In this document: positions 2,560 through 41,279 of the stretch, in pieces
Numbering within the stretch: the first letter of the stretch is position 1
Layout of the letters: every line of letters begins with the position of its first letter
Source of the DNA: a virus
Strand: one strand, 5' to 3'
Virus record (IMG/VR): IMGVR_UViG_3300045988_151297
Coordinates: 1 to 41,279 of that record
DNA: 41,279 nt
Program-made: the position numbers and the translations under genes
Notes under the pieces: generated by a model
The model's input: only the letters and a program-made list of their open reading frames with translations
Databases searched by the model: none
What the model was told of the DNA's origin: nothing

Positions 2560-3927
2560 ATGAGAAAAATAAAAATAGATAAAGATTATACTTTAACTAA
2601 TGATTTAATACTTGATTTAATAGAAAAACATAGTGAAGAAAAATCAAGATTAGAAAAGCTTCTAAAATATTACAATAATGAAAATGACAAGATAAGTAAT
2701 AGAGTATATAAGAATAAAAATAAGCCACAAAATAGATTATCTCACCCTTACGCTCAATACATAACTGATACTGCGACTGGATATTTATTAGGGAAACCTA
2801 TTGCTTACTCAACAGAAGATAAAAAGCTTTTAGAAGAAATAACTGATATATTTAAGTATAATGATGAAGCTGATAACAATACAACTTTAGCTAAGATGGC
2901 GAGTATATATGGTTACGCTTATGAAATAATGTACATAGATAAATATGCTAATCCTAGATTTAAAGCTGTTGATCCTAGTGAGTTAATAGTTTGTTATGAT
3001 AACACTTTAGACGAAAATATAATATTAGCTATAAGATATTATGATGAAATAGTTAGAGTTAATGATGAAGATGAAACTATTACTAGACTTGAAATATATA
3101 CAAAACCTATTGAAAATGACAAAGGTCAAATAGTTGGTAATGGTAAAATCATAAGAGGAACTATAGAAGATAATAATATAACTTTATCAGATGAAGAAGA
3201 TTGTTATTTTGATGATATACCAGTAAATGTTTATATCAATAATGATGAACTTTATGGGGACTTTGAAAAAGTAATAAGCTTAATAGATGCTTACGACCAA
3301 AGTCAGTCAGATACTGCTAACGATTTTGAACTATTTACTAATTGTATGCTTGTAGTAAATGGTGAATTAATAGATGATGAACAAGCTAAAGACTTAAATG
3401 ACATAAATTTAATACAATTTTTAAATTCTGATAGTGATGCTAAATATCTTATAAAAGATATACAAGATACTGCTTTAGAGAATTATAAGAATAGATTAAA
3501 TGAAGATATACACCGTTTTAGCTTTGTACCCAATATGAGTGATACCGAGTTTTCTTCAAACGCTAGTGGTGTAGCTATGAAATTTAAGCTTATGGGACTT
3601 GAAAACTTAGTAGGAGTTAAGGAAAGTAAATTTAGAAAGGGCTTAATGAGAAGGATAGAGTTGTTATGTGCTTATACTAAAATGAAAAATAATAGCGACT
3701 ATTCTTATTTAGCTATTGAGCCAGTCTTTACTAGAAATACTCCTAATAATGAGTTAGAGTTATCACAAATAATGCAAAACTTAGATGGAATTTTAAGTGA
3801 AGAAACTATAATTGGGATGTCGCCTAGAGTTAGTGATATTCAAGCAGAAATAGAGAAAAAAGAAAAAGAAGCTAATAAGCTTTATGAGGATAATTATTCT
3901 GAATTAGGTGATATAGATGCCGAATAA
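2560..3927 (+). CDS. Portal protein, SPP1 gp6-like
   Basis: 455 aa directly after terL, with ATG 2560 preceded by AGGAGG. The track ORF starts earlier at 2512, without an RBS. Sequence is typical portal type (NRLSHPYAQYITDTATGYLLGKPI). Confidence 0.9.
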   Translation: MRKIKIDKDYTLTNDLILDLIEKHSEEKSRLEKLLKYYNNENDKISNRVYKNKNKPQNRLSHPYAQYITDTATGYLLGKPIAYSTEDKKLLEEITDIFKYNDEADNNTTLAKMASIYGYAYEIMYIDKYANPRFKAVDPSELIVCYDNTLDENIILAIRYYDEIVRVNDEDETITRLEIYTKPIENDKGQIVGNGKIIRGTIEDNNITLSDEEDCYFDDIPVNVYINNDELYGDFEKVISLIDAYDQSQSDTANDFELFTNCMLVVNGELIDDEQAKDLNDINLIQFLNSDSDAKYLIKDIQDTALENYKNRLNEDIHRFSFVPNMSDTEFSSNASGVAMKFKLMGLENLVGVKESKFRKGLMRRIELLCAYTKMKNNSDYSYLAIEPVFTRNTPNNELELSQIMQNLDGILSEETIIGMSPRVSDIQAEIEKKEKEANKLYEDNYSELGDIDAE

Positions 3928-4948
3928 TTTACCTAATGAAGAATATTGGACTAAAAGAGAAACCTATAAACTGAAAAAAGGCTTAAAAGATTTAAAAAAA
4001 ATAGAAAAAGAATTAGTTAATGAATATAAAAAAGCTATGAATGAGATAGGTAAAGAAATTAGTAATTTATTTTATAAATATGCTAAAGATAATAACCTAT
4101 CTTATTCTAATGCAAAAAAATATTTAAACAGTAGCGAATTTAAAGAATTTAAAAGAGATTTAAAGTCTTATATGAAGCTTATAGAAGAAACAGGCGATGA
4201 AGAACTTTTACTTGAGTTAAATACTTTAGCTATGAAAAGCCGTATAAGCCGTTTAGAAGAAATGTTTTATCAGTGCAGTAAATACATCAATGAAGTATAC
4301 GAAAACACTAATAATAGGCTTCAAATAGCTTACAGTAGCACTATAAAAGATAATTATTACCAAACTATATATGATATACATAAAGCTATAGGAGTAGGTG
4401 CTAGTTTTTCATATATTGATAATGATATGATAAAAGAAATATTAGCTTTTCCTTGGAGTGGTAGGCATTATAGTCAAAGGTTATGGAGCAACAGAACCAA
4501 ATTGAAAAATGCTATGGTTGAAGAACTTACTCAAATGCTTATACAAGGCAAAGGAGTAAAAGAAACTTCTAGGGCATTATCTAAAAGACTAGATGCAGAT
4601 TTAAAAAACTGTATAAGGCTTATACATACTGAACATTCATATTTTATGGGAGAAGCTACTGCAAAGGCATATGATGAGTTAGGAGTAGATAAATATCAAT
4701 TCCTTGCTACTTTAGATAATAGGACTTCTGAAATATGTCAAAAGCTAGACGGGAAAGTATTTAATTTAAAAGATAGAGTAGTTGGTGTTAATGCTTCGCC
4801 TATGCATGTTCACTGTCGCTCTTGCGAGATCCCTTATATAGAGGATAACTATTCAACTAGATTTGCAAGAGATAGCAAAGGTAAAAGAATAGAAATAGAT
4901 TCAAGTATGACTTACAAAGAATGGGCTAAAATTTATAAAATAGAGTAA
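3917..4948 (+). CDS. Head morphogenesis / minor capsid protein, SPP1 gp7 / Mu F-like
   Basis: 343 aa after the portal gene. Conserved FPWSGRHYSQRLWSN, TEHSYFMGEA, and C-terminal LDNRTSEICQKLDGKVF and HVHCRSC motifs of the Phage_Mu_F family. Confidence 0.9.
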   Translation: MPNNLPNEEYWTKRETYKLKKGLKDLKKIEKELVNEYKKAMNEIGKEISNLFYKYAKDNNLSYSNAKKYLNSSEFKEFKRDLKSYMKLIEETGDEELLLELNTLAMKSRISRLEEMFYQCSKYINEVYENTNNRLQIAYSSTIKDNYYQTIYDIHKAIGVGASFSYIDNDMIKEILAFPWSGRHYSQRLWSNRTKLKNAMVEELTQMLIQGKGVKETSRALSKRLDADLKNCIRLIHTEHSYFMGEATAKAYDELGVDKYQFLATLDNRTSEICQKLDGKVFNLKDRVVGVNASPMHVHCRSCEIPYIEDNYSTRFARDSKGKRIEIDSSMTYKEWAKIYKIE

Positions 4949-4983
4949 TTGTGATATTTAATTGTTTAAATTTCAATATTTAT

Positions 4984-5015
4984 ACATACTGTATGTGATA
5001 AATATATGTTATAAT
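4984..5015 (+). promoter_or_regulatory. Extended -10 promoter (TGtTATAAT, 5007..5015) with upstream 6-1-6 palindrome ACATACtGTATGT (4984..4996)
   Basis: Read directly from the sequence. It lies 18 nt upstream of ATG 5033, in the gap after the gp7-like gene. Confidence 0.4.
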
Positions 5016-5032
5016 AATATCGAGGTGATTAT

Positions 5033-5311
5033 ATGCTAACATATTATTATTTGCCATTAGATGCAGATGCAGTGGAAATAGAAGTATTAAGGCAATTATA
5101 TAAATATTGTAAAGATAAAAGTTTTATTTGCGAATATTCATTAGCTTCATTGTCTAATAGTTGTGATAAAAGATTGAATATAACAAAAAGAAAAATAGAA
5201 ACTATATTAAAAAACTTTGAAGCTAAAGGATGGATAAAACATATAAATAAAGGTGTTGGAAGAAATAAAAGTATTCTTAAGATAACTTTTAAAGAGAATG
5301 TTAACAATTAA
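5033..5311 (+). CDS. Small winged-helix DNA-binding protein, paralogue of the N-terminal domain of the replisome organiser (32807..33550)
   Basis: 92 aa, aligning by eye to residues about 4..88 of the 247-aa organiser. Shared motif: DKRLN(I/L)T..K..TILK.FE..G(W/Y)IK. RBS GAGGTGA. The gene has its own promoter and terminator. Confidence 0.6.
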   Translation: MLTYYYLPLDADAVEIEVLRQLYKYCKDKSFICEYSLASLSNSCDKRLNITKRKIETILKNFEAKGWIKHINKGVGRNKSILKITFKENVNN

Positions 5312-5334
5312 AATATAGTATTTTCAATGTATTT

Positions 5335-5365
5335 AAGGACTTATTGTGATATAAGTTCTTTTTTA
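5335..5365 (+). terminator. Intrinsic terminator after the wHTH gene
   Basis: AAGGACTTA/TAAGTTCTT stem (one G-U) followed by TTTTT. Confidence 0.6.
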
Positions 5366-5386
5366 TTGAAAAAATATGTGACATTT

Positions 5387-5441
5387 CTAACAACAATCTA
5401 ACAACAATCTAACAACAATCTAACAACAATCTAACAAATAA
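5387..5441. repeat. Tandem 11-bp iterons CTAACAACAAT, 4 full copies plus 1 partial
   Basis: Perfect units at 5387, 5398, 5409 and 5420, with a partial unit at 5431. The period of 11 bp is one helical turn. Confidence 0.95.
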
Positions 5442-5480
5442 AATATAGTATTTGCAACAGATTTAATGATTAATCGTTGC

Positions 5481-5535
5481 ATTTATGTGATATTTATGTG
5501 GTATTTATGTGATATTAGCGTGATATTTCTAACAA
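5481..5535. repeat. Second tandem 11-bp array ATTTATGTGAT (4 copies, degenerating) ending in ATTTCTAACAA
   Basis: Units at 5481, 5492, 5503 and 5514: ATTTATGTGAT / ATTTATGTGGT / ATTTATGTGAT / ATTAGCGTGAT. Confidence 0.9.
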
Positions 5536-5583
5536 TACTATCAATAAGAATAATAAATAATATATTATATATAGTCTTTTTAG

Positions 5584-5617
5584 CTTTTACTAAGTGTTTT
5601 TAGTAAGGGCTTTTTTA
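5584..5617 (+). terminator. Terminator-like hairpin before the scaffold gene
   Basis: CTTTTACTAA/TTAGTAAGGG stem (two G-U) followed by CTTTTTT. Confidence 0.45.
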
Positions 5618-5701
5618 TTGTCTTTTTTACTTGTTATAGACATTAAAGAATAACTCGGAAAACTTAAAAGCCTACTATGGCTATAAACTAGGAGGATCAA
5701 A

Positions 5702-6304
5702 ATGGAAAAAACTAAAAACAACGTTGTTAATAATGAAGTAGATAAAATAGCTTCAGATGTTCATGATAAGCTAATTAAAGGAACAGATGTAGAAGCTAAA
5801 GATGTTAAAACTTTCACTCAAGATGAAGTTGATAAGATGATTTCTAAAAGACTTCAAAGAGAAAGAAAAGATATAGAAGCTAAGATTGAAGCTGAACGAA
5901 AAGAAGCAGAAGAATTAGCTAAATTATCAGAGCAAGAAAAGCAAAAGAAATTATTTGAAAAACAAGTTAGGGAATTTGAAGAAACTAAAAAAGCATTTGA
6001 AGCTGAAAGGTTATTAAATGAAACATCAAAGCAATTAGCTTCTAAAAATTTACCTATAGAATTCGCTCAAATGTTAAAAGGTGAAGATGCTGAAAGCACT
6101 TTTAATAATATAAATGTGTTTGAAGCTAAATTCAATGAAGCCTTAGAAAAGATGGTAACTGAAAGACTAAGAGGGGCGACTCCAAAAGTTGCAACTACAA
6201 GTAATGGAATAACTAAAGAAGAATTTAAGAAAATGTCTTTAGCACAACAAGCAGAACTTGCTAAAAAAGATAAAGATTTATATTTAGAACTATCAAAAAA
6301 TTAA
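5702..6304 (+). CDS. Scaffolding protein (DUF4355-like)
   Basis: 200 aa, coiled-coil and rich in K/E. FTQDEVDKMISKRLQRERKD is the typical scaffold motif. It sits immediately upstream of the capsid gene and follows RBS AGGAGG. Confidence 0.85.
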   Translation: MEKTKNNVVNNEVDKIASDVHDKLIKGTDVEAKDVKTFTQDEVDKMISKRLQRERKDIEAKIEAERKEAEELAKLSEQEKQKKLFEKQVREFEETKKAFEAERLLNETSKQLASKNLPIEFAQMLKGEDAESTFNNINVFEAKFNEALEKMVTERLRGATPKVATTSNGITKEEFKKMSLAQQAELAKKDKDLYLELSKN

Positions 6305-6326: not shown

Positions 6327-7118
6327 ATGGCATGGAATGAAAACGTAGTATATGATAATTTTGTATTAGAGAATAAATTTAAAGATATATTAAAAACTAA
6401 ATTAGATGCAATAAAATTTATGACTGTTGACACTGACTTACAAGGTGTTGAAGGTATGAAAAAAACTATAAACACTTATACTTATGAAGGTGCAGTAGAA
6501 GCAGTTGCAGAAGGTGCAACTAATACTACAAGAGGTAAAGTTACTTTTGACGATCAAGATTATGATGTTGTAGTTAAGCAACAAGTATTTGACTATACTG
6601 ATGAACAAGCTATGAAAGATGCTAATGTAGTAGAGGTAGGAATAAAAGGTTCAGCTATAGAAATGGTAAACGACTTAAATAATGATTTCTTTACTGAAAT
6701 AGCAAAAACTTCTACAGTACATACACATGAAGGTGCGTTTAACTATGATGTTGTTGTTGATGCAATAGAAAAAATGAACATAGAAGATGAAACTGGATTA
6801 TTCTTATTAGTTGGGAATGATTTAAAAGCAGCTATAAGAAAAGATGCAGATTTTAAAGCTTCAAGACTAGGAGAAATATTATATACTGGTCAAATAGGAG
6901 ACATATGTGGAGTACCAGTTGCATTCTCTAAGAAAGTACCAGCTAATACTGCTTACTTAGCAACTAAAGAAGCAGTAACTTGCTTTGTTAAGAAGCAAAA
7001 TGAAGTTGAACAAGATAGAGATAAGGAAAAGAGAATAAACACTGTTATAACTAGAAAAGTTGCTTTAGTAGCTTTAACAGATGCAACGAAAGCAGTTAAA
7101 ATAACAGTTACACCCTAA
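6327..7118 (+). CDS. Major capsid protein
   Basis: 263 aa in the position after the scaffold gene, with strong RBS GAGGTGA. The sequence is typical of a small HK97-fold capsid family of Firmicutes phages. A terminator lies downstream. Confidence 0.8.
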   Translation: MAWNENVVYDNFVLENKFKDILKTKLDAIKFMTVDTDLQGVEGMKKTINTYTYEGAVEAVAEGATNTTRGKVTFDDQDYDVVVKQQVFDYTDEQAMKDANVVEVGIKGSAIEMVNDLNNDFFTEIAKTSTVHTHEGAFNYDVVVDAIEKMNIEDETGLFLLVGNDLKAAIRKDADFKASRLGEILYTGQIGDICGVPVAFSKKVPANTAYLATKEAVTCFVKKQNEVEQDRDKEKRINTVITRKVALVALTDATKAVKITVTP

Positions 7119-24069: not shown

Positions 24070-24097
24070 ATTATATTGTATATGAGTTTATCCACAA
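24070..24097 (-). promoter_or_regulatory. Leftward promoter (TTGTGG, 16 nt, TATAAT)
   Basis: Minus strand: -10 at 24070..24075 and -35 at 24092..24097. The -35 overlaps the TGTGGAT repeats. Confidence 0.4.
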
Positions 24098-24114
24098 TAT
24101 CCACATAATCCACA
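24090..24114. repeat. Three direct repeats of ATCCACA (minus strand TGTGGAT) at 9-bp spacing
   Basis: TCCACA at 24091, 24100 and 24109. Confidence 0.85.
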
Positions 24115-24177
24115 AAATAAATAAACCCAAAGCATCATATGATAGTGTGGCTAGACATATTGAAAATGCTTGGATGG

Positions 24178-24259
24178 AAAATTTCTTTCTATCCGGATAG
24201 AAAGTTTTTTTCTATAGCTTAGAAAAATTCTTTTCATCCGGACAGAAAGTTTTTTTACA
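24178..24259. promoter_or_regulatory. Two about 37-bp direct repeats 45 bp apart; the first holds a perfect 20-bp palindrome CTTTCTATCCGGATAGAAAG (24185..24204) followed by T7, and the second copy is degenerate
   Basis: Copy 1 is at 24178..24214 and copy 2 at 24223..24259 (4 mismatches in 34). Each reads as hairpin plus T7 on the + strand, so they may be operators or + strand terminators. Confidence 0.6.
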
Positions 24260-24343
24260 TAAACTAGAATTAATAAACTAGATTAAACAAATTATATTTA
24301 TTTAACTTTTAGAAAAAATAAAAAATAAATTCAAAATAAGAAG

Positions 24344-24372
24344 TTGCAAAATTGGCATACTAATAGTATAAT
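24344..24372 (+). promoter_or_regulatory. Rightward early promoter (TTGCAA, 17 nt, TATAAT)
   Basis: -35 at 24344..24349 and -10 at 24367..24372, 32 nt upstream of ATG 24404. Confidence 0.6.
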
Positions 24373-24403
24373 AATGATATAACTAAATAAGTGAGGTGAT
24401 AAA

Positions 24404-24712
24404 ATGAATGGTGTAATATTTAAAGGTTTTCATGTAAGTAAGGCTCTTGATGGAATTATAAATGATAAAGATTTAAATGGAGATGAAAAAGTTATATTAA
24501 TAACTATAAGTTTTTACCATAAGGGTTTAATAGAAGAAGATCCTGCTATGAGTTTGCCGATGGATAAAATAAGCGAATTAGTTAATTGTTCAAAGTCGAC
24601 TGCAAATAGAATAATGAAAAAATTAATAGAAAAGGGATATTTAGAAAGCATAAAAAAAGGTCAAGGGAAACCTAATATTTATGTATTTAAGGGGTGGAGA
24701 AAATGGCAATAA
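24404..24712 (+). CDS. Winged-helix protein, short RepA_N-like
   Basis: 102 aa. LNGDEKVILITISFY ... ISELVNCSKSTANRIMKKLIEKGYLESIKKGQGKPNIYVF follows the RepA_N-type pattern (...CS..T....ELxExGLI....G.GKPN.IYV). Confidence 0.45.
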   Translation: MNGVIFKGFHVSKALDGIINDKDLNGDEKVILITISFYHKGLIEEDPAMSLPMDKISELVNCSKSTANRIMKKLIEKGYLESIKKGQGKPNIYVFKGWRKWQ

Positions 24713-28079: not shown

Positions 28080-29015
28080 ATGTTAATTGAAGGTTTATTA
28101 GTTGGGGCAATAGGTGGGTTAATTGCTTATGCTAGTAAAATAGTTTATGAAGCTAATAAATCAAATGATGAAGTTATTGAAATTGAAAATATAGTTAAAT
28201 ATGAATATATACCAGTTGGGGAATGGGAGGATATTGAAATGGAATTAAATAAAGTTAAATATACTTTTATTGAAGGAGAAAAAGAAGGAGTAAAGGCTTT
28301 TATAGGATACGATTTAGAAGGGAATCTAAAAAACTTTGATATGTTAGAAGGTCATACAATGGTTGGAGGTGCTTCTAGGTGGGGAAAATCTAGCTTTTTA
28401 AATGTATTTATAACTAATATAACTAAAACATATACGAGAAATGAAGTTTGTTTTTTAGGTTGTGATTATAAAAAAGCAGATGTTTATTATTTTAGAAATT
28501 ATAACAACTTTTTAGGTATGAGTACAAATAAAAAAGAATTTATGGCTCAAATAAAATGGCTAGAAAAAGAAATGAATAAAAGGGCTGATATATTAGACGA
28601 AGCTAATTGCAGAAATGTAATAAATTATAATAAAAAGCATGATGTAAAAATGAGTTATATAATATTTGTAATAGATGAATTAGTTCAAGTTGTATGTGAT
28701 AGAGAGTGCAAAGAAGTGCTTCATACTGTTATGAGTAAATGTGCATCTTATGGAATTTACTTTTTATTAGCTACTCAAGACTGTACAAAGGAAATAATAG
28801 GTAGATGCAAAATGAATTGTAGCCAGATAATAGGCTTTCATACATTCGATCAAACAGATAGTGATACATTAATTGGTAAAGGCTATAACTTGCAAGATAT
28901 AAATGTAAAAGGTAGATGCAAAATAAAAAATAGTGAAGGTATAGTAGAAACTCAAATATTTTATTTAGAAGAAGATGAAATTGAGGAAATGTTAAAACCT
29001 TATTTGAATAAATAG
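28080..29015 (+). CDS. Membrane-anchored FtsK/SpoIIIE-family P-loop ATPase
   Basis: N-terminal TM LIEGLLVGAIGGLIAYA. Walker A GGASRWGKSS, Walker B IIFVIDELVQV, and the FtsK-type motif FLLATQD. Confidence 0.8.
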   Translation: MLIEGLLVGAIGGLIAYASKIVYEANKSNDEVIEIENIVKYEYIPVGEWEDIEMELNKVKYTFIEGEKEGVKAFIGYDLEGNLKNFDMLEGHTMVGGASRWGKSSFLNVFITNITKTYTRNEVCFLGCDYKKADVYYFRNYNNFLGMSTNKKEFMAQIKWLEKEMNKRADILDEANCRNVINYNKKHDVKMSYIIFVIDELVQVVCDRECKEVLHTVMSKCASYGIYFLLATQDCTKEIIGRCKMNCSQIIGFHTFDQTDSDTLIGKGYNLQDINVKGRCKIKNSEGIVETQIFYLEEDEIEEMLKPYLNK

Positions 29016-32513: not shown

Positions 32514-32615
32514 AAATATAGTCTTTTTTGTCGTAATAAAGAGAACGATTACATATAACAAATATCACAAAAAGAGATATTATATATTATATAAAGTTTT
32601 TAAAGGGGGAGGAAT

Positions 32616-32795
32616 ATGAAGGTAAAAGAATATAGGCTTTTAAATGGATATACACAAACTGAAATTGCTAATATTTTAAACATAAAACAAAATAGTTATA
32701 GCAATAAAGAATTAGGGAAAAGGGCTTTTACAATTGAAGAGATAAAATTATTAAAGGAATTGTTTAAAGTTACTTATGAAGATTTGCTAAATTAA
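32616..32795 (+). CDS. XRE-type HTH protein (59 aa)
   Basis: MKVKEYRLLNGYTQTEIANILNIKQNSYSNKELGKRAFTIEEIKLL, after RBS GGGGGAGG. It is below the track cut-off. Confidence 0.65.
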   Translation: MKVKEYRLLNGYTQTEIANILNIKQNSYSNKELGKRAFTIEEIKLLKELFKVTYEDLLN

Positions 32796-32806
32796 GGGGG
32801 TATCAA

Positions 32807-33550
32807 GTGAAAAAATATTTTATAGCATTAGATGAAATGACACTTGAAGAAATAGATATTTGGAGATTATTATGCAGATACTCAAATTATGATACAGATG
32901 TAGCAGGATATACAATTAATCAGTTAGTTGTAAATTCTGACAAGAGATTAAATCTAACTACTCAAAAGGTTAGGACTATATTAAAGAAATTTGAGAAAGA
33001 AGGGTATATTAAGTTTCTTACAAGTGGGAGTAAAGGGAAAGAAAGTACATTGGAGCTAACAATTAAACAACAATTATTCAACAACAATGTAACAAATAAA
33101 AGTGAGCAATTGCAACGAGTTGAGGAGTCAGATAACAGTAATCTAACAACTAAACAACAACAATCTAACAATACTACAAAGAAAAAAGAAAAAGATAATA
33201 ATAATATATATAGTTTAGTTATAGATTATCTTAATAGAAAAGCTTCTACTAATTACAGATCAACTACTAAAAATACTCAAAGTTTTATAAATGCTAGAGT
33301 AAAAGAAGGATATACAGTGGAAGACTTTAAAAAGGTCATTGATAGTAAAAGCAAAGATTGGCTTAATACAGATTTTGAAAAGTATTTAAGGCCAGCAACT
33401 TTATTTGGGACTAAATTTGAAAATTATTTAAATGAAGCAAATAAAAAAGAACCTACTGCAATAGGTTCTGATAAAAATAAAAATATTAAAGTTAATCCTA
33501 GTATATGCAACAATAGAAGAAAATATACACAAGCTTGCGATATTGGGTAG
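32807..33550 (+). CDS. Replisome organiser / replication initiation protein (N-terminal wHTH plus conserved phage C-terminus, DnaD-like)
   Basis: The C-terminal IYSLVIDYLNRKASTNYRSTTKNTQSFINARVKEGYTVEDFKKVIDSK...WLNTDFEKYLRPATLFGTKFENYLNE is the conserved phage C-terminus (Phg_2220_C-type). The gene precedes the primase-helicase. Confidence 0.75.
   Translation: MKKYFIALDEMTLEEIDIWRLLCRYSNYDTDVAGYTINQLVVNSDKRLNLTTQKVRTILKKFEKEGYIKFLTSGSKGKESTLELTIKQQLFNNNVTNKSEQLQRVEESDNSNLTTKQQQSNNTTKKKEKDNNNIYSLVIDYLNRKASTNYRSTTKNTQSFINARVKEGYTVEDFKKVIDSKSKDWLNTDFEKYLRPATLFGTKFENYLNEANKKEPTAIGSDKNKNIKVNPSICNNRRKYTQACDIG
33080..33176. repeat. Iteron-like motifs inside the organiser gene (candidate origin)
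   Basis: 33080..33101 matches 5422..5443 at 21 of 22 positions. 33156..33171 AACAACAATCTAACAA is identical to the iteron junction at 5389..5404. 33164..33176 TCTAACAATACTA is identical to 5528..5540. CTAACAA copies lie at 33143 and 33165, 22 bp apart. Confidence 0.6.
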
Positions 33551-33559
33551 GGGGATATT

Positions 33560-35356
33560 ATGAAAAATATAATTGAAGATATAAAAAGATATATAGATGC
33601 AGAACAAGTTAAAAATAAAATAGCTTTAGATTTAGGTCTTAAATTTAAAAATAATAAATGTTTATGTTTTTTACATTCTGAAAGTAATCCTAGTATGAGT
33701 TTTGACACTAAAAAGAAAAAATTTAAATGTTTTTCGTGTGGCCAAAACTATGACATATTCAATCATTATCAACAATATTATAATTTATCATTCTTGGAAG
33801 CTTTAAAATCAATTGTAAAAGATTTTAATTTAAATATAGATGTAATTATCAATGAAACAGATAGAAAGCCCAAAAAGCCTCCTACGAAGCATGAGAATTA
33901 TAATGATGCAATATTAAATTATTGCAATAAAAGAAGCATATCAAAAGCTACACTAGATTATGTTGGAGTTAAGAGAAATTTTAACAATAAAGATGGAAAT
34001 AGTGTATGTTTTGAATATAGAAATGAATTAGGAGAGCATTTATGTAATAAGTATAGATTTACTTCCAAAAATGCTAATCCTAAAATGAAATTTGAAGAAG
34101 GTACTAATGTAAATACTTTATTTAATATGGATAAGGTAAATATATCAGAGCCTTTGTTGATAACAGAAGGTGAATTTGATTGTTTAAGTGCTATAGAGGC
34201 AGGTTTTAAGAATGCAGTATCAATACCAAGTGGAGTAAATTCAACCAATCAATGGATAACAAACAACTGGACTTTTATAGAACAGTTTGAAGAAATAATT
34301 ATATGGTTTGATAATGATGAAGCAGGAATAAAAGGTGCTAGAGAGGTATTTAATAGGTTGCCTAACAGTAGTGTAAAAATAGTTAGATGTGAGGTAGCTA
34401 ATGATATAAATGAGTTATTGCACAAGTATGGAAAGTTAGCAGTATTAAAACAAATAGAAAAAGCTTCTACACCTACACTAGAAGGTGTTGCAACACTTGA
34501 CATGATAGAAGATTTTGATGTTCACGAAGCAGAAACATTAAAAACTGGTATAGAATATATTGATGATAAGCTTATAGGAATGGTATTTGGTAGTCTTAAT
34601 GTATTAAGTGGTAGAAATGGTAGTGGTAAATCAACTATATTAAATCAAATATATATTGCAGAAGCTATTCATCAAGGGTATAAAACATTCTTATTTAGTG
34701 GGGAGTTAATAGGTGGGAATGTTAAGTATTGGTTGCTTCAAACTTTAGCAAATGAAGAACAATTCGCAGAATATACTGCTAAAGACGGTCATAAATATAA
34801 AAAAGTTACTATTCAAGCAAAAGAAAAAATAATTAACGATATGAAAGATAGATTTTTCTTATATGATAGTGATGATTATAGAATTGAAGCTATAATTGAG
34901 AAAATGACTATACTAGCTAAAAGATATGGAGTAAGAGTATTTGTTATAGATAATCTTATGACTATTGAAAGTAGTGTTAAAGATAAGTATGAAGCTGAAA
35001 CTGATATAGTTAAAAAACTAAAAAACTTTGCTAAAAAATATAATTCAATAGTTCATTTAGTTGCACATCCTCGAAAGTCTATGAATGATGAAATTGAAAA
35101 AGATGATGTTGCAGGAAGTGCTAATATAACTAACTTAGCAGATTATGTAACTACAATATCAAGGGCAAAAGATGAAGAAGTAGAATATGATGCAATACTT
35201 AAAATTTTAAAAAACCGACATACTGGGGTAAACGTAGGTAAAAAGTTAATGTTTAATATAGAGCGTAAAAGGTTTTATAGTGCTGAAACAGAAAAAGAAT
35301 TAAATAAAAGATATTTAGATTTATGGGAGGAAATACAGGGAACATGGGAAGATTAG
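33560..35356 (+). CDS. Bifunctional primase-helicase (CHC2 zinc finger, Toprim, DnaB-like/T7 gp4-like helicase)
   Basis: CLCFLHSESNPSMSF..FKCFSCG zinc finger. Toprim EGEFDCLS ... WFDNDEAG. Walker A GRNGSGKST, Walker B FVIDNL. Confidence 0.9.
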   Translation: MKNIIEDIKRYIDAEQVKNKIALDLGLKFKNNKCLCFLHSESNPSMSFDTKKKKFKCFSCGQNYDIFNHYQQYYNLSFLEALKSIVKDFNLNIDVIINETDRKPKKPPTKHENYNDAILNYCNKRSISKATLDYVGVKRNFNNKDGNSVCFEYRNELGEHLCNKYRFTSKNANPKMKFEEGTNVNTLFNMDKVNISEPLLITEGEFDCLSAIEAGFKNAVSIPSGVNSTNQWITNNWTFIEQFEEIIIWFDNDEAGIKGAREVFNRLPNSSVKIVRCEVANDINELLHKYGKLAVLKQIEKASTPTLEGVATLDMIEDFDVHEAETLKTGIEYIDDKLIGMVFGSLNVLSGRNGSGKSTILNQIYIAEAIHQGYKTFLFSGELIGGNVKYWLLQTLANEEQFAEYTAKDGHKYKKVTIQAKEKIINDMKDRFFLYDSDDYRIEAIIEKMTILAKRYGVRVFVIDNLMTIESSVKDKYEAETDIVKKLKNFAKKYNSIVHLVAHPRKSMNDEIEKDDVAGSANITNLADYVTTISRAKDEEVEYDAILKILKNRHTGVNVGKKLMFNIERKRFYSAETEKELNKRYLDLWEEIQGTWED

Positions 35357-41038: not shown

Positions 41039-41194
41039 ATGAAGCACAAGTTTTGGATTAGAGTTAGATTTTGTGGAGAAATCATAGATAGATTTTTCTT
41101 AGATTATCCTAAGATGAATTATTTTACAACTAAACATAATATAAAAGATAAAGACATTATTTTTATTAAAACTAGAAAAGAACTAATAAGGTAA
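41039..41194 (+). CDS. Small hypothetical protein (51 aa) spanning the repeat junction
   Basis: ATG follows GGAGGAAG. Protein begins MKHKFWIRVRFCGEIIDRFFLDYPKMNYF... The stop at 41192..41194 is equivalent to 12..14. Confidence 0.45.
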   Translation: MKHKFWIRVRFCGEIIDRFFLDYPKMNYFTTKHNIKDKDIIFIKTRKELIR

Positions 41195-41279
41195 TAAAAC
41201 AATAATATCTAGGGGGAGTATTATGACTAAAGATAAATATAAATATATCGAAGGGTTATTAAGAAATTATAAAAAAAAT
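41181..41279. repeat. Second copy of the 99-bp terminal repeat, containing the duplicated 5' end of the regulator gene (ATG 41223)
   Basis: Identical to 1..99. Confidence 0.95.

Follow-up and report, generated by a model that had tools for sequence, protein, structure and literature searches.

A probable counterpart of SPP1 oriR in the head module of an AT-rich phage genome, accompanied by a small paralogue of the replisome organiser

The viral genome IMGVR_UViG_3300045988_151297 of the IMG/VR collection, a stretch of 41,279 nucleotides that was analysed at its full length and is called the window here, carries a repeat-rich segment in its head module, between a MuF-like gene (3917..4948, PF04233) and the scaffold gene (5702..6304, PF14265). 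This segment holds one small gene, encoding a 92-residue winged helix-turn-helix protein, and two arrays of 11-bp repeats. We consider it probable (at roughly 0.6) that positions 5366-5620 are the counterpart of the oriR segment of phage SPP1, with an added small DNA-binding protein that modulates the complex formed by the replisome organiser. The two-origin design and its location are already known from SPP1, to which these distant, AT-rich phages with contractile tails add a new member. Because its first 99 bases (1-99) recur at its end (41181-41279), the window is a whole genome of about 41.18 kb whose assembly closes into a circle; its G+C content is about 27%.

The replisome organiser of the window (Table 1) has a C-terminal domain of the PF09524/TIGR02220 type (PF09524, E = 2e-29) and matches the PHROG families annotated as “replication initiation protein”; the gene that follows it (33560..35356) encodes a 598-residue fusion of zinc ribbon, Toprim and DnaB_C domains, that is, a primase-helicase. 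Inside the organiser gene lie repeats, a box and an AT-rich stretch that are conserved in related organiser genes, and the low-complexity linkers of the window organiser and of its relatives mirror these DNA repeats. A multiple alignment was made of ten sequences: the window segment, the organiser-internal region of the window, the head-module elements of five phages and three other organiser genes. All ten are colinear, with left iterons, a box of about 28 bp, a short spacer, right iterons, CACTATCAAAGAA and an AT-rich run, in that order; the box has the consensus TAACAAATAAAA-N8-TTKCAAY and the AT-rich run ends in ATATATAG. In the head-module copies the AT-rich run is followed by a terminator (T2) and then by a conserved block before the scaffold gene. 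By this alignment, the region around and including array 1 is a non-coding copy, in the same order, of the repeats within the organiser gene. The 8-mer TCTAACAA has eight copies in the window, six of them in the segment, two in the organiser gene and none elsewhere, and the iteron matches inside the organiser gene (21/22, 16/16 and 13/13) that had been noted in an earlier, sequence-only reading of this DNA were verified. Cumulative GC skew merely tracked the direction of transcription and was uninformative on origins.

That reading had taken the segment for an autonomous cassette, a partial duplication of an origin and its binding domain, at a place where related head modules have no gene. The duplication has held up insofar as the segment is homologous to the organiser N-domain and to its internal repeats, but the segment is neither a recent nor an autonomous insertion. 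Nor do related head modules lack a gene there: at least 16 related metagenomic loci carry such a cassette at the same place, and SPP1 has oriR and three genes. A synteny comparison found the element conserved at the site across distant phages. Four phages have an element without any open reading frame (ORF) between MuF and scaffold. In L233 the MuF protein is 91% identical to that of the window and the organiser on the same contig 61% identical; the MuF protein of L230 is only 35% identical; and in L220 the head proteins have no tblastn match to those of the window, the organiser on that contig being 73% identical. The fourth, L266, has an equivalent architecture built of GGGCAAC/T iterons, the variant found inside organiser genes of the L009/L011 type, so that two iteron types occur both in organiser genes and in the head-module element. 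The element is old and widespread here and not peculiar to the window genome, being kept even between phages with head proteins of only 35-47% identity or without detectable similarity.

A different kind of array stands at the cassette site in L088 (IMGVR_UViG_3300045988_148823, 2700-2800), whose scaffold protein is 100% identical to that of the window. The cassette is absent from it, and in its place are four palindromic GGTACTAAAAATAGTACGG units, then a terminator, then the conserved block. The L088 contig is missing from the organiser and primase-helicase hit lists, and when viral contigs were scanned with the palindromic array for a partner locus in the L088 contig, only the head-module copy was found among the matches listed. 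This array may be the matching site for a different type of initiator, in which case we would predict that the initiator gene of L088, or its binding sites, match GGTACTAAAAATAGTAC.

Neither the region nor the small protein had a match in INPHARED by megablast, blastn or tblastn. When representative genomes were scanned with an iteron 18-mer, the hits were ascribed to chance, their surroundings holding no related proteins and their GC content being unsuitable; no host or prophage was identified. The contigs of L003, L004, L218 and L219 end inside or just past the arrays. Such cassettes are probably under-represented in assemblies, because tandem repeats common to two loci break short-read assembly. 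Some relatives also have a gene with a NUMOD4 domain, of the homing-endonuclease type, inserted between portal and MuF (L002, 3860-4576; L003, 3684-4088); it is not present in the window, and its insertion marks the head module as a target for mobile genes.

The precedent for a second origin region at this location is SPP1. There, oriL lies inside gene 38 (PMC6316719; PMC5737612), and the oriR segment interrupts the conserved order of the head genes, is bracketed by transcription signals and comes with three moron genes (PMC6316719). Both regions consist of iterons and an AT-rich DNA-unwinding element, and the organiser G38P binds both of them with high affinity (PMC6316719; PMC5737612). In the current model replication starts at oriL, and G38P bound at oriR stalls the fork and so leads to recombination-dependent concatemer synthesis (PMC3485210). 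In the SPP1 record itself, gene 7 (MuF-like, PF04233) ends at 4728, gene 8 starts at 5064 and the scaffold gene 11 is at 6914, and the region between genes 7 and 8 contains a 71-nucleotide stretch about 85% identical to the gene 38 repeats. G38P also scores as PF09524 (E = 2e-20), and the C-terminal 130 residues of the window organiser align with it in BLASTP at 34% identity (E = 4e-20).

The window therefore resembles SPP1 in an organiser with a PF09524 C-domain, in iterons and an AT-rich tract embedded in the coding sequence of that organiser and in a second, non-coding, colinear copy between the gene-7-like (MuF) and scaffold genes. It does so too in the transcription signals that bracket the segment (here a promoter-like element, terminators T1 and T2 and the conserved block) and in the single-strand annealing protein, nuclease and SSB encoded nearby. 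Among the roles proposed earlier for the segment, that of a second origin has thus gained a direct precedent, oriR at the syntenic position; and the late operon is indeed broken by terminators, as was noted earlier, an arrangement shared with the oriR segment of SPP1, which is described as “bracketed between transcriptional signals”. The two systems differ in that the iteron sequence and the N-domain of the organiser have no detectable similarity, and in that the virion module of the window's relatives includes a gene for a contractile-tail sheath. Moreover, the genes at SPP1 oriR are three unrelated morons, whereas the window has a paralogue of the organiser DNA-binding domain, together with an array of its own that is interleaved with the organiser iterons.

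The 92-residue protein is clearly related to the organiser: it matches organiser residues 4-92 in BLASTP with 36% identity over 89 residues (E = 8e-16), in agreement with the earlier suggestion. An AlphaFold2 model (pLDDT 88, pTM 0.80) has the topology H1-beta-H2-H3 followed by a beta-hairpin wing, that is, a winged helix-turn-helix with the recognition helix at residues 52-65 and the wing at 68-84. Foldseek and profile searches returned only generic winged-helix DNA-binding domains (CodY, MarR, PadR), and the defence-system models of PADLOC gave no match for the protein. The closest homologues are few. They stand directly after the MuF gene where flanks are present (L001-L007, L288) and are followed by the scaffold gene where the contig reaches that far; the contig of L004 is an exception in that it starts within an upstream ORF of no recognised kind. 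When 1.8 billion representative sequences were searched with a sensitive method, only 19 proteins were found, among which full-length organisers were mixed with short proteins, and full-length organisers are the nearest remote homologues of the small protein. Two of the short ones (P0009 and P0011, 38-39% identical to the window protein) also come directly after MuF, with their own promoter, terminator and 11-bp arrays, and complete cassettes of this type are found in L226 and L289-L295. Two other short stand-alone N-domains, P0013 and P0017, are not part of the system, as they have unrelated contexts and are apparently split organisers or neighbours of a resolvase.

The small gene is real and under purifying selection: the ratio of nonsynonymous to synonymous rates (dN/dS) is 0.22 between the window and L001 (dS 0.10), 0.15 between the window and L003 (dS 0.59) and 0.03 within allele B, one of the three allele classes described below, between L218 and L226 (dS 0.14). 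The small ORF ends exactly where the repeat region of the organiser would start, in a different frame, as one might expect of a truncated duplicate, and the cassette could in principle be the functionless, decaying relic of a partial duplication of the organiser gene. We regard this as very improbable, given the dN/dS of 0.15-0.22, the perfect iterons, the covariation of protein allele and repeats described below, and the fact that alleles with as little as 38% identity still have the position, promoter, terminator and stop codon in common.

The two arrays do not seem to be sites of one protein but to belong to two, array 1 being invariant and following the type of the organiser, and array 2 covarying with the allele of the small protein. 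There are three allele classes of the small protein (A, B and C), each with its own private 11-bp repeat: for allele A TGTGATATTTA in the window, TGTGACATTTA in L003 and TGTT(A/C)CATTT in L004, which is 62% identical; for allele B TAGACAGTTGA; and for allele C TAGACAATATA. In every class the private motif is found just upstream of the -10 element of the small-gene promoter, within the hairpin of the terminator T1 that follows the gene, and directly 5' of each of the two organiser-iteron blocks, where one to four copies stand in phase and at a constant distance from the junction. This layout is shared by the complete cassettes known for alleles B and C. A matrix of cross-counts places each private motif essentially only within its own allele class and none in the ORF-less elements. 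The window-wide count of the private motif is not above expectation. The motif CTAACAA, for its part, is never in the promoter and stands downstream in all elements on contigs that run on beyond the private array (that of L219 ends inside it).

The two specificities can be separated in one natural combination. Contig 138726 has an organiser 90% identical to that of the window and an allele-B small protein only 38% identical, which means that the private specificity does not depend on the organiser: it is the small protein that the private repeat tracks, and the organiser that the invariant iteron tracks. When the sequences are compared, the residues of the recognition helix change in step with the motif: TTQKVRT in the window-type organiser goes with TCTAACAA, TTKKVRN in the L009-type organiser with GGGCAAC, TKRKIET in allele A with TGTGAY, and NKDKL in alleles B and C with TAGACA, a core that these two share. 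From this we infer that the small protein binds the private repeat TGTGAYATTTA, that by way of the copy in the promoter spacer it acts as a repressor of its own gene, and that it sits beside the organiser on the origin-like element.

The same specificities bear on another role that had been suggested, an origin decoy or dominant-negative device directed against co-infecting relatives. In temperate lactococcal phages, direct repeats in a low-complexity linker of the organiser gene (TP901-1 ORF13, Tuc2009 Rep2009; TIGR01714/TIGR02220) act as the origin, and extra copies of such an origin can titrate replication factors (“Per”), an artificial multicopy effect. We know of no natural second copy in the head module of these phages and of no stand-alone N-domain paralogue. 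A natural version of Per would agree with the moron-like appearance of the small gene, with its own sigma-70-type promoter and terminator, with perfect iterons that could bind any organiser of the window type, and with alleles of distinct specificities, which recall immunity groups. However, the repeat and the recognition helix of the small protein, as read from the sequences, differ from those of the organiser, and it should not bind the origins of competitors for that reason. The private motif is confined to its own cassette, the ORF-less elements indicate that the iteron element exists without the protein, and a single-copy decoy would titrate the phage's own organiser equally. Nor do defence-system models give a match, and exclusion expressed from a prophage is unlikely because no integrase, and no lysogeny module, was recognised in the window. 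We thus do not favour a decoy and consider it improbable.

Outside the cassette there is a single exact copy of the private motif, TGTGATATTT at 32560-32569 on the minus strand, upstream of the cro-like gene (32616..32795), which is the gene before the organiser. It was rejected as an operator for the small protein, being identical in a contig that carries allele B and hence not covarying with the allele, and it is probably due to chance.

The placing of the private motif also allows a plainer reading, in which the 92-residue protein is an ordinary regulator or insulator of the late head operon, the repeats are operators for read-through or for a restart promoter, and the likeness to an origin is merely historical. 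The generic fold, near to the MarR, PadR and CodY repressors, the motif copy that overlaps the small gene's own promoter, and the copies in T1 and upstream of the conserved block before the scaffold gene would all suit such a regulator. T2, however, lies between the arrays and the conserved block. Besides, the capsid operon does not need the protein, since ORF-less phages, and even L088 with its unrelated array, keep T2 and the block without it; and plain operators leave unexplained the fixed distance of the private sites to both organiser-iteron blocks in three alleles. We hold this reading to be unlikely, if somewhat less so than the decoy.

Arrays of initiator-binding iterons outside the primary origin, in helical phase, are also a feature of P1 incA and of iteron-plasmid loci. 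Copy control by handcuffing had been suggested earlier; a form of it in which organiser bound at the head module would pair with the origin in the organiser gene, and the small protein would tune the pairing, agrees with the iterons shared by two distant loci and with the 11-bp phasing, which puts the sites on one face of the helix. G38P is likewise reported to bind both SPP1 regions with similar affinity (PMC5737612). Yet the element of the window has the full layout of an origin, including the box and the AT-rich tract, whereas loci that serve control only, such as incA, are without an unwinding element; and a second protein, with iterons of its own, is involved as well. The window is, moreover, a phage, with no lysogeny or plasmid-maintenance genes identified beside the element, and a phage of the lytic type would gain little by limiting its copy number, so handcuffing is hardly a likely explanation. 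A further comparison is ParR/parC of plasmid R1, where, much as proposed here, a small DNA-binding protein that regulates its own expression acts on 11-bp direct repeats arranged in two blocks, and the repeats overlap its promoter. The window differs in having a winged helix, not a ribbon-helix-helix, and repeats homologous to an origin; it has no ParM or ParA partner, the small gene standing alone between its promoter and T1 with MuF and scaffold as neighbours. For a small paralogue with private iterons interleaved with those of the organiser, no described counterpart was found in family libraries or the searchable literature.

We return, then, to an oriR counterpart with an added modulator as the most probable interpretation. 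From the homologies, the synteny, the covariation and the purifying selection one can propose the following course of events. The full-length organiser would bind the invariant CTAACAACAAT iterons at both loci. By analogy with SPP1, the head-module copy could serve as a second origin or, more likely, as a place where organiser, tightly bound to the DNA, blocks the fork that comes from the primary origin and so brings about the switch from theta to concatemer replication. To this arrangement the lineage has added a gene for a stand-alone paralogue of the organiser DNA-binding domain, whose product would occupy the sites at a fixed distance 5' of both organiser-iteron blocks. As the small protein is without the PF09524 C-terminal domain, which we take to carry the contacts with the helicase or its loader, it should be unable to start replication itself. 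That its sites flank the two organiser blocks, and do so in helical phase, suggests a direct interaction with the complex of the organiser; most likely the small protein would nucleate, cap or lock that complex, as a cis-specific modulator of oriR. Our preference is for a protein that makes or times the fork barrier, or else silences firing at the head-module copy. Still more specifically, and quite tentatively, the N-domain paralogue and the organiser might co-assemble on the in-phase iterons into a phage-specific, programmable fork barrier that times the theta-to-concatemer switch, the private specificity keeping control in cis during mixed infections; this last proposal is possible but doubtful.

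Several observations weigh against this interpretation. The role of SPP1 oriR is itself a model and not a demonstrated fact (PMC6316719; PMC3485210, 2012-2018). The similarity of the organiser to G38P in BLASTP does not extend to the N-domains, the match beginning at residue 100 of the window protein. In the window the organiser is followed by a primase-helicase fusion and not, as in SPP1, by the loader G39P and the DnaB-type helicase G40P, and no G39P-like gene was recognised there. Iterons of the L009 and L018 types have no exact second copy in their own 37-kb contigs, and the two-site design may for this reason not be general. Finally, a copy of the private motif at 4950-4960, right after the stop codon of MuF, is also kept in allele-B cassettes, so that not every copy of this motif is allele-specific.

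The features of the segment and of the organiser gene are collected in Table 1. All the sequence features that the sequence-only reading had listed are present and non-random, among them the extended -10 element, the palindrome ACATACtGTATGT (4985-4997), the small ORF, which is preceded by the ribosome-binding site GAGGTGA, and the two arrays with a period of 11 bp, of which array 1 (unit CTAACAACAAT) has 4.7 copies with 100% matches and array 2 has 4.4 copies with 83%. The palindrome is not conserved in relatives; what is conserved is the direct motif TATGTGAY. Folding confirmed both the terminator after the small gene and the second terminator-like hairpin: T1 has a stem of 10 bp (5335-5360) with a U-run behind it (-8.9 kcal/mol, z = -3.0), and T2 is a hairpin at 5582-5611 followed by a T-run (-13.4 kcal/mol, z = -4.8). 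T2 was the sole terminator-like site from a scan of the region, where 0.1 were expected, and an Rfam search of 4800-5800 gave no family match. The 26-bp direct repeat between the two box copies (5302-5327 and 5432-5457, 24/26 identical) was likewise verified and extends to 46 nucleotides at 80%. The box at the 3' end of the small gene is kept even in alleles whose proteins are only 38% identical. The private site at 5376-5386 joins the organiser iterons in the same geometry as is seen at 5519-5529, and alleles B and C have junctions of an analogous kind. The AT-rich tract aligns with the AT-rich stretch that follows the iterons in organiser genes and in all related head-module elements. The block TTATTGTCTTTTTTACTTGTTATAGAC is conserved in all relatives examined (L088, L233, L226, L230 and L266), whether or not they have the small ORF, and could be a restart promoter of the capsid operon or a site that regulates it.

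Table 1. Positions of the features of the head-module segment and of the organiser gene in the window
Feature	Position	Strand	Remarks
Small-gene promoter	4992..5016	+	extended -10 element TGTTATAAT at 5008-5016, read directly
Private-motif copy TATGTGATAAATA	4992-5004	+	in the promoter spacer; putative auto-operator
Gene for the 92-residue winged-helix protein	5033..5311	+	stand-alone paralogue of the N-terminal origin-binding domain of the organiser
Box copy 1, TAACAATTAAAATATAGTATTTTCAATG	5302..5330	+	overlaps the stop codon of the small gene; direct repeat with 5432-5457
Terminator T1	5335..5366	+	loop and 3' arm hold the private-motif variant TGTGATATAAG
Single private site ATGTGACATTT	5376..5386	+	abuts the left organiser-iteron block
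Array 1, organiser-type iterons TCTAACAACAA	5386..5437	+	left iteron block of the oriR-like element
Box copy 2, TAACAAATAAAATATAGTATTTGCAACAG	5432..5460	+	conserved central box; counterparts in the alignment are 33087-33115 of the organiser gene and the box of every related element
Array 2, private iterons ATTTATGTGAT	5481..5528	+	insertion relative to the minimal ORF-less elements
Right organiser iteron TCTAACAATACTA	5528..5540	+	identical to 33164-33176
AT-rich tract (…AATAATAAATAATATATTATATATAG)	5541..5576	+	candidate DNA-unwinding element
Terminator T2	5582..5620	+	closes the segment; conserved in relatives, including ORF-less ones
Conserved block TTATTGTCTTTTTTACTTGTTATAGAC	5615..5641	+	directly after T2, upstream of the scaffold gene; unique in the window
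Replisome-organiser gene	32807..33550	+	N-terminal winged helix-turn-helix, repeat-encoding linker, PF09524 C-domain; 247 residues
oriL-like region in the organiser gene	33055..33215	+	AACAACAAT-type repeats, box, TCTAACAA repeats, AT-rich tract

Two other loci of the window may be mentioned. An ORF at 24404..24712 encodes a third small winged-helix protein (102 residues) with a weak match (E ~1e-5) to the N-terminal regions of replication-initiator/DnaD-like PHROG families. Just upstream of it are three copies of TATCCACAA (24089-24115) and 2.1 copies of a 45-bp repeat with internal inverted repeats (24172-24269). The whole region 24089-24712, which lies where genes on the minus strand meet those on the plus strand, may be a further locus of initiator-like or regulatory character. 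The early region also has a gene for an FtsK/SpoIIIE-like ATPase (28080..29015).

For SPP1 the question has been whether oriR works as another origin of replication or whether protein bound there blocks the fork and so sets off the change to concatemer synthesis. The two-site design recurs at the equivalent head-module position in AT-rich (~27% GC) phages with contractile tails, which argues that the second site is selected for a function. The natural variants form a comparative series, with elements that have no small gene, three alleles with their matching private repeats, and a second type of iteron, and the small paralogue shows in a compact form how a DNA-binding domain and its repeats diversify in concert beside an invariant origin. 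If the paralogue and the organiser do co-assemble on the element, the small protein would represent a new class of accessory origin protein, and these phages would for the first time make the function long supposed for an SPP1-type oriR accessible to comparison and genetics.

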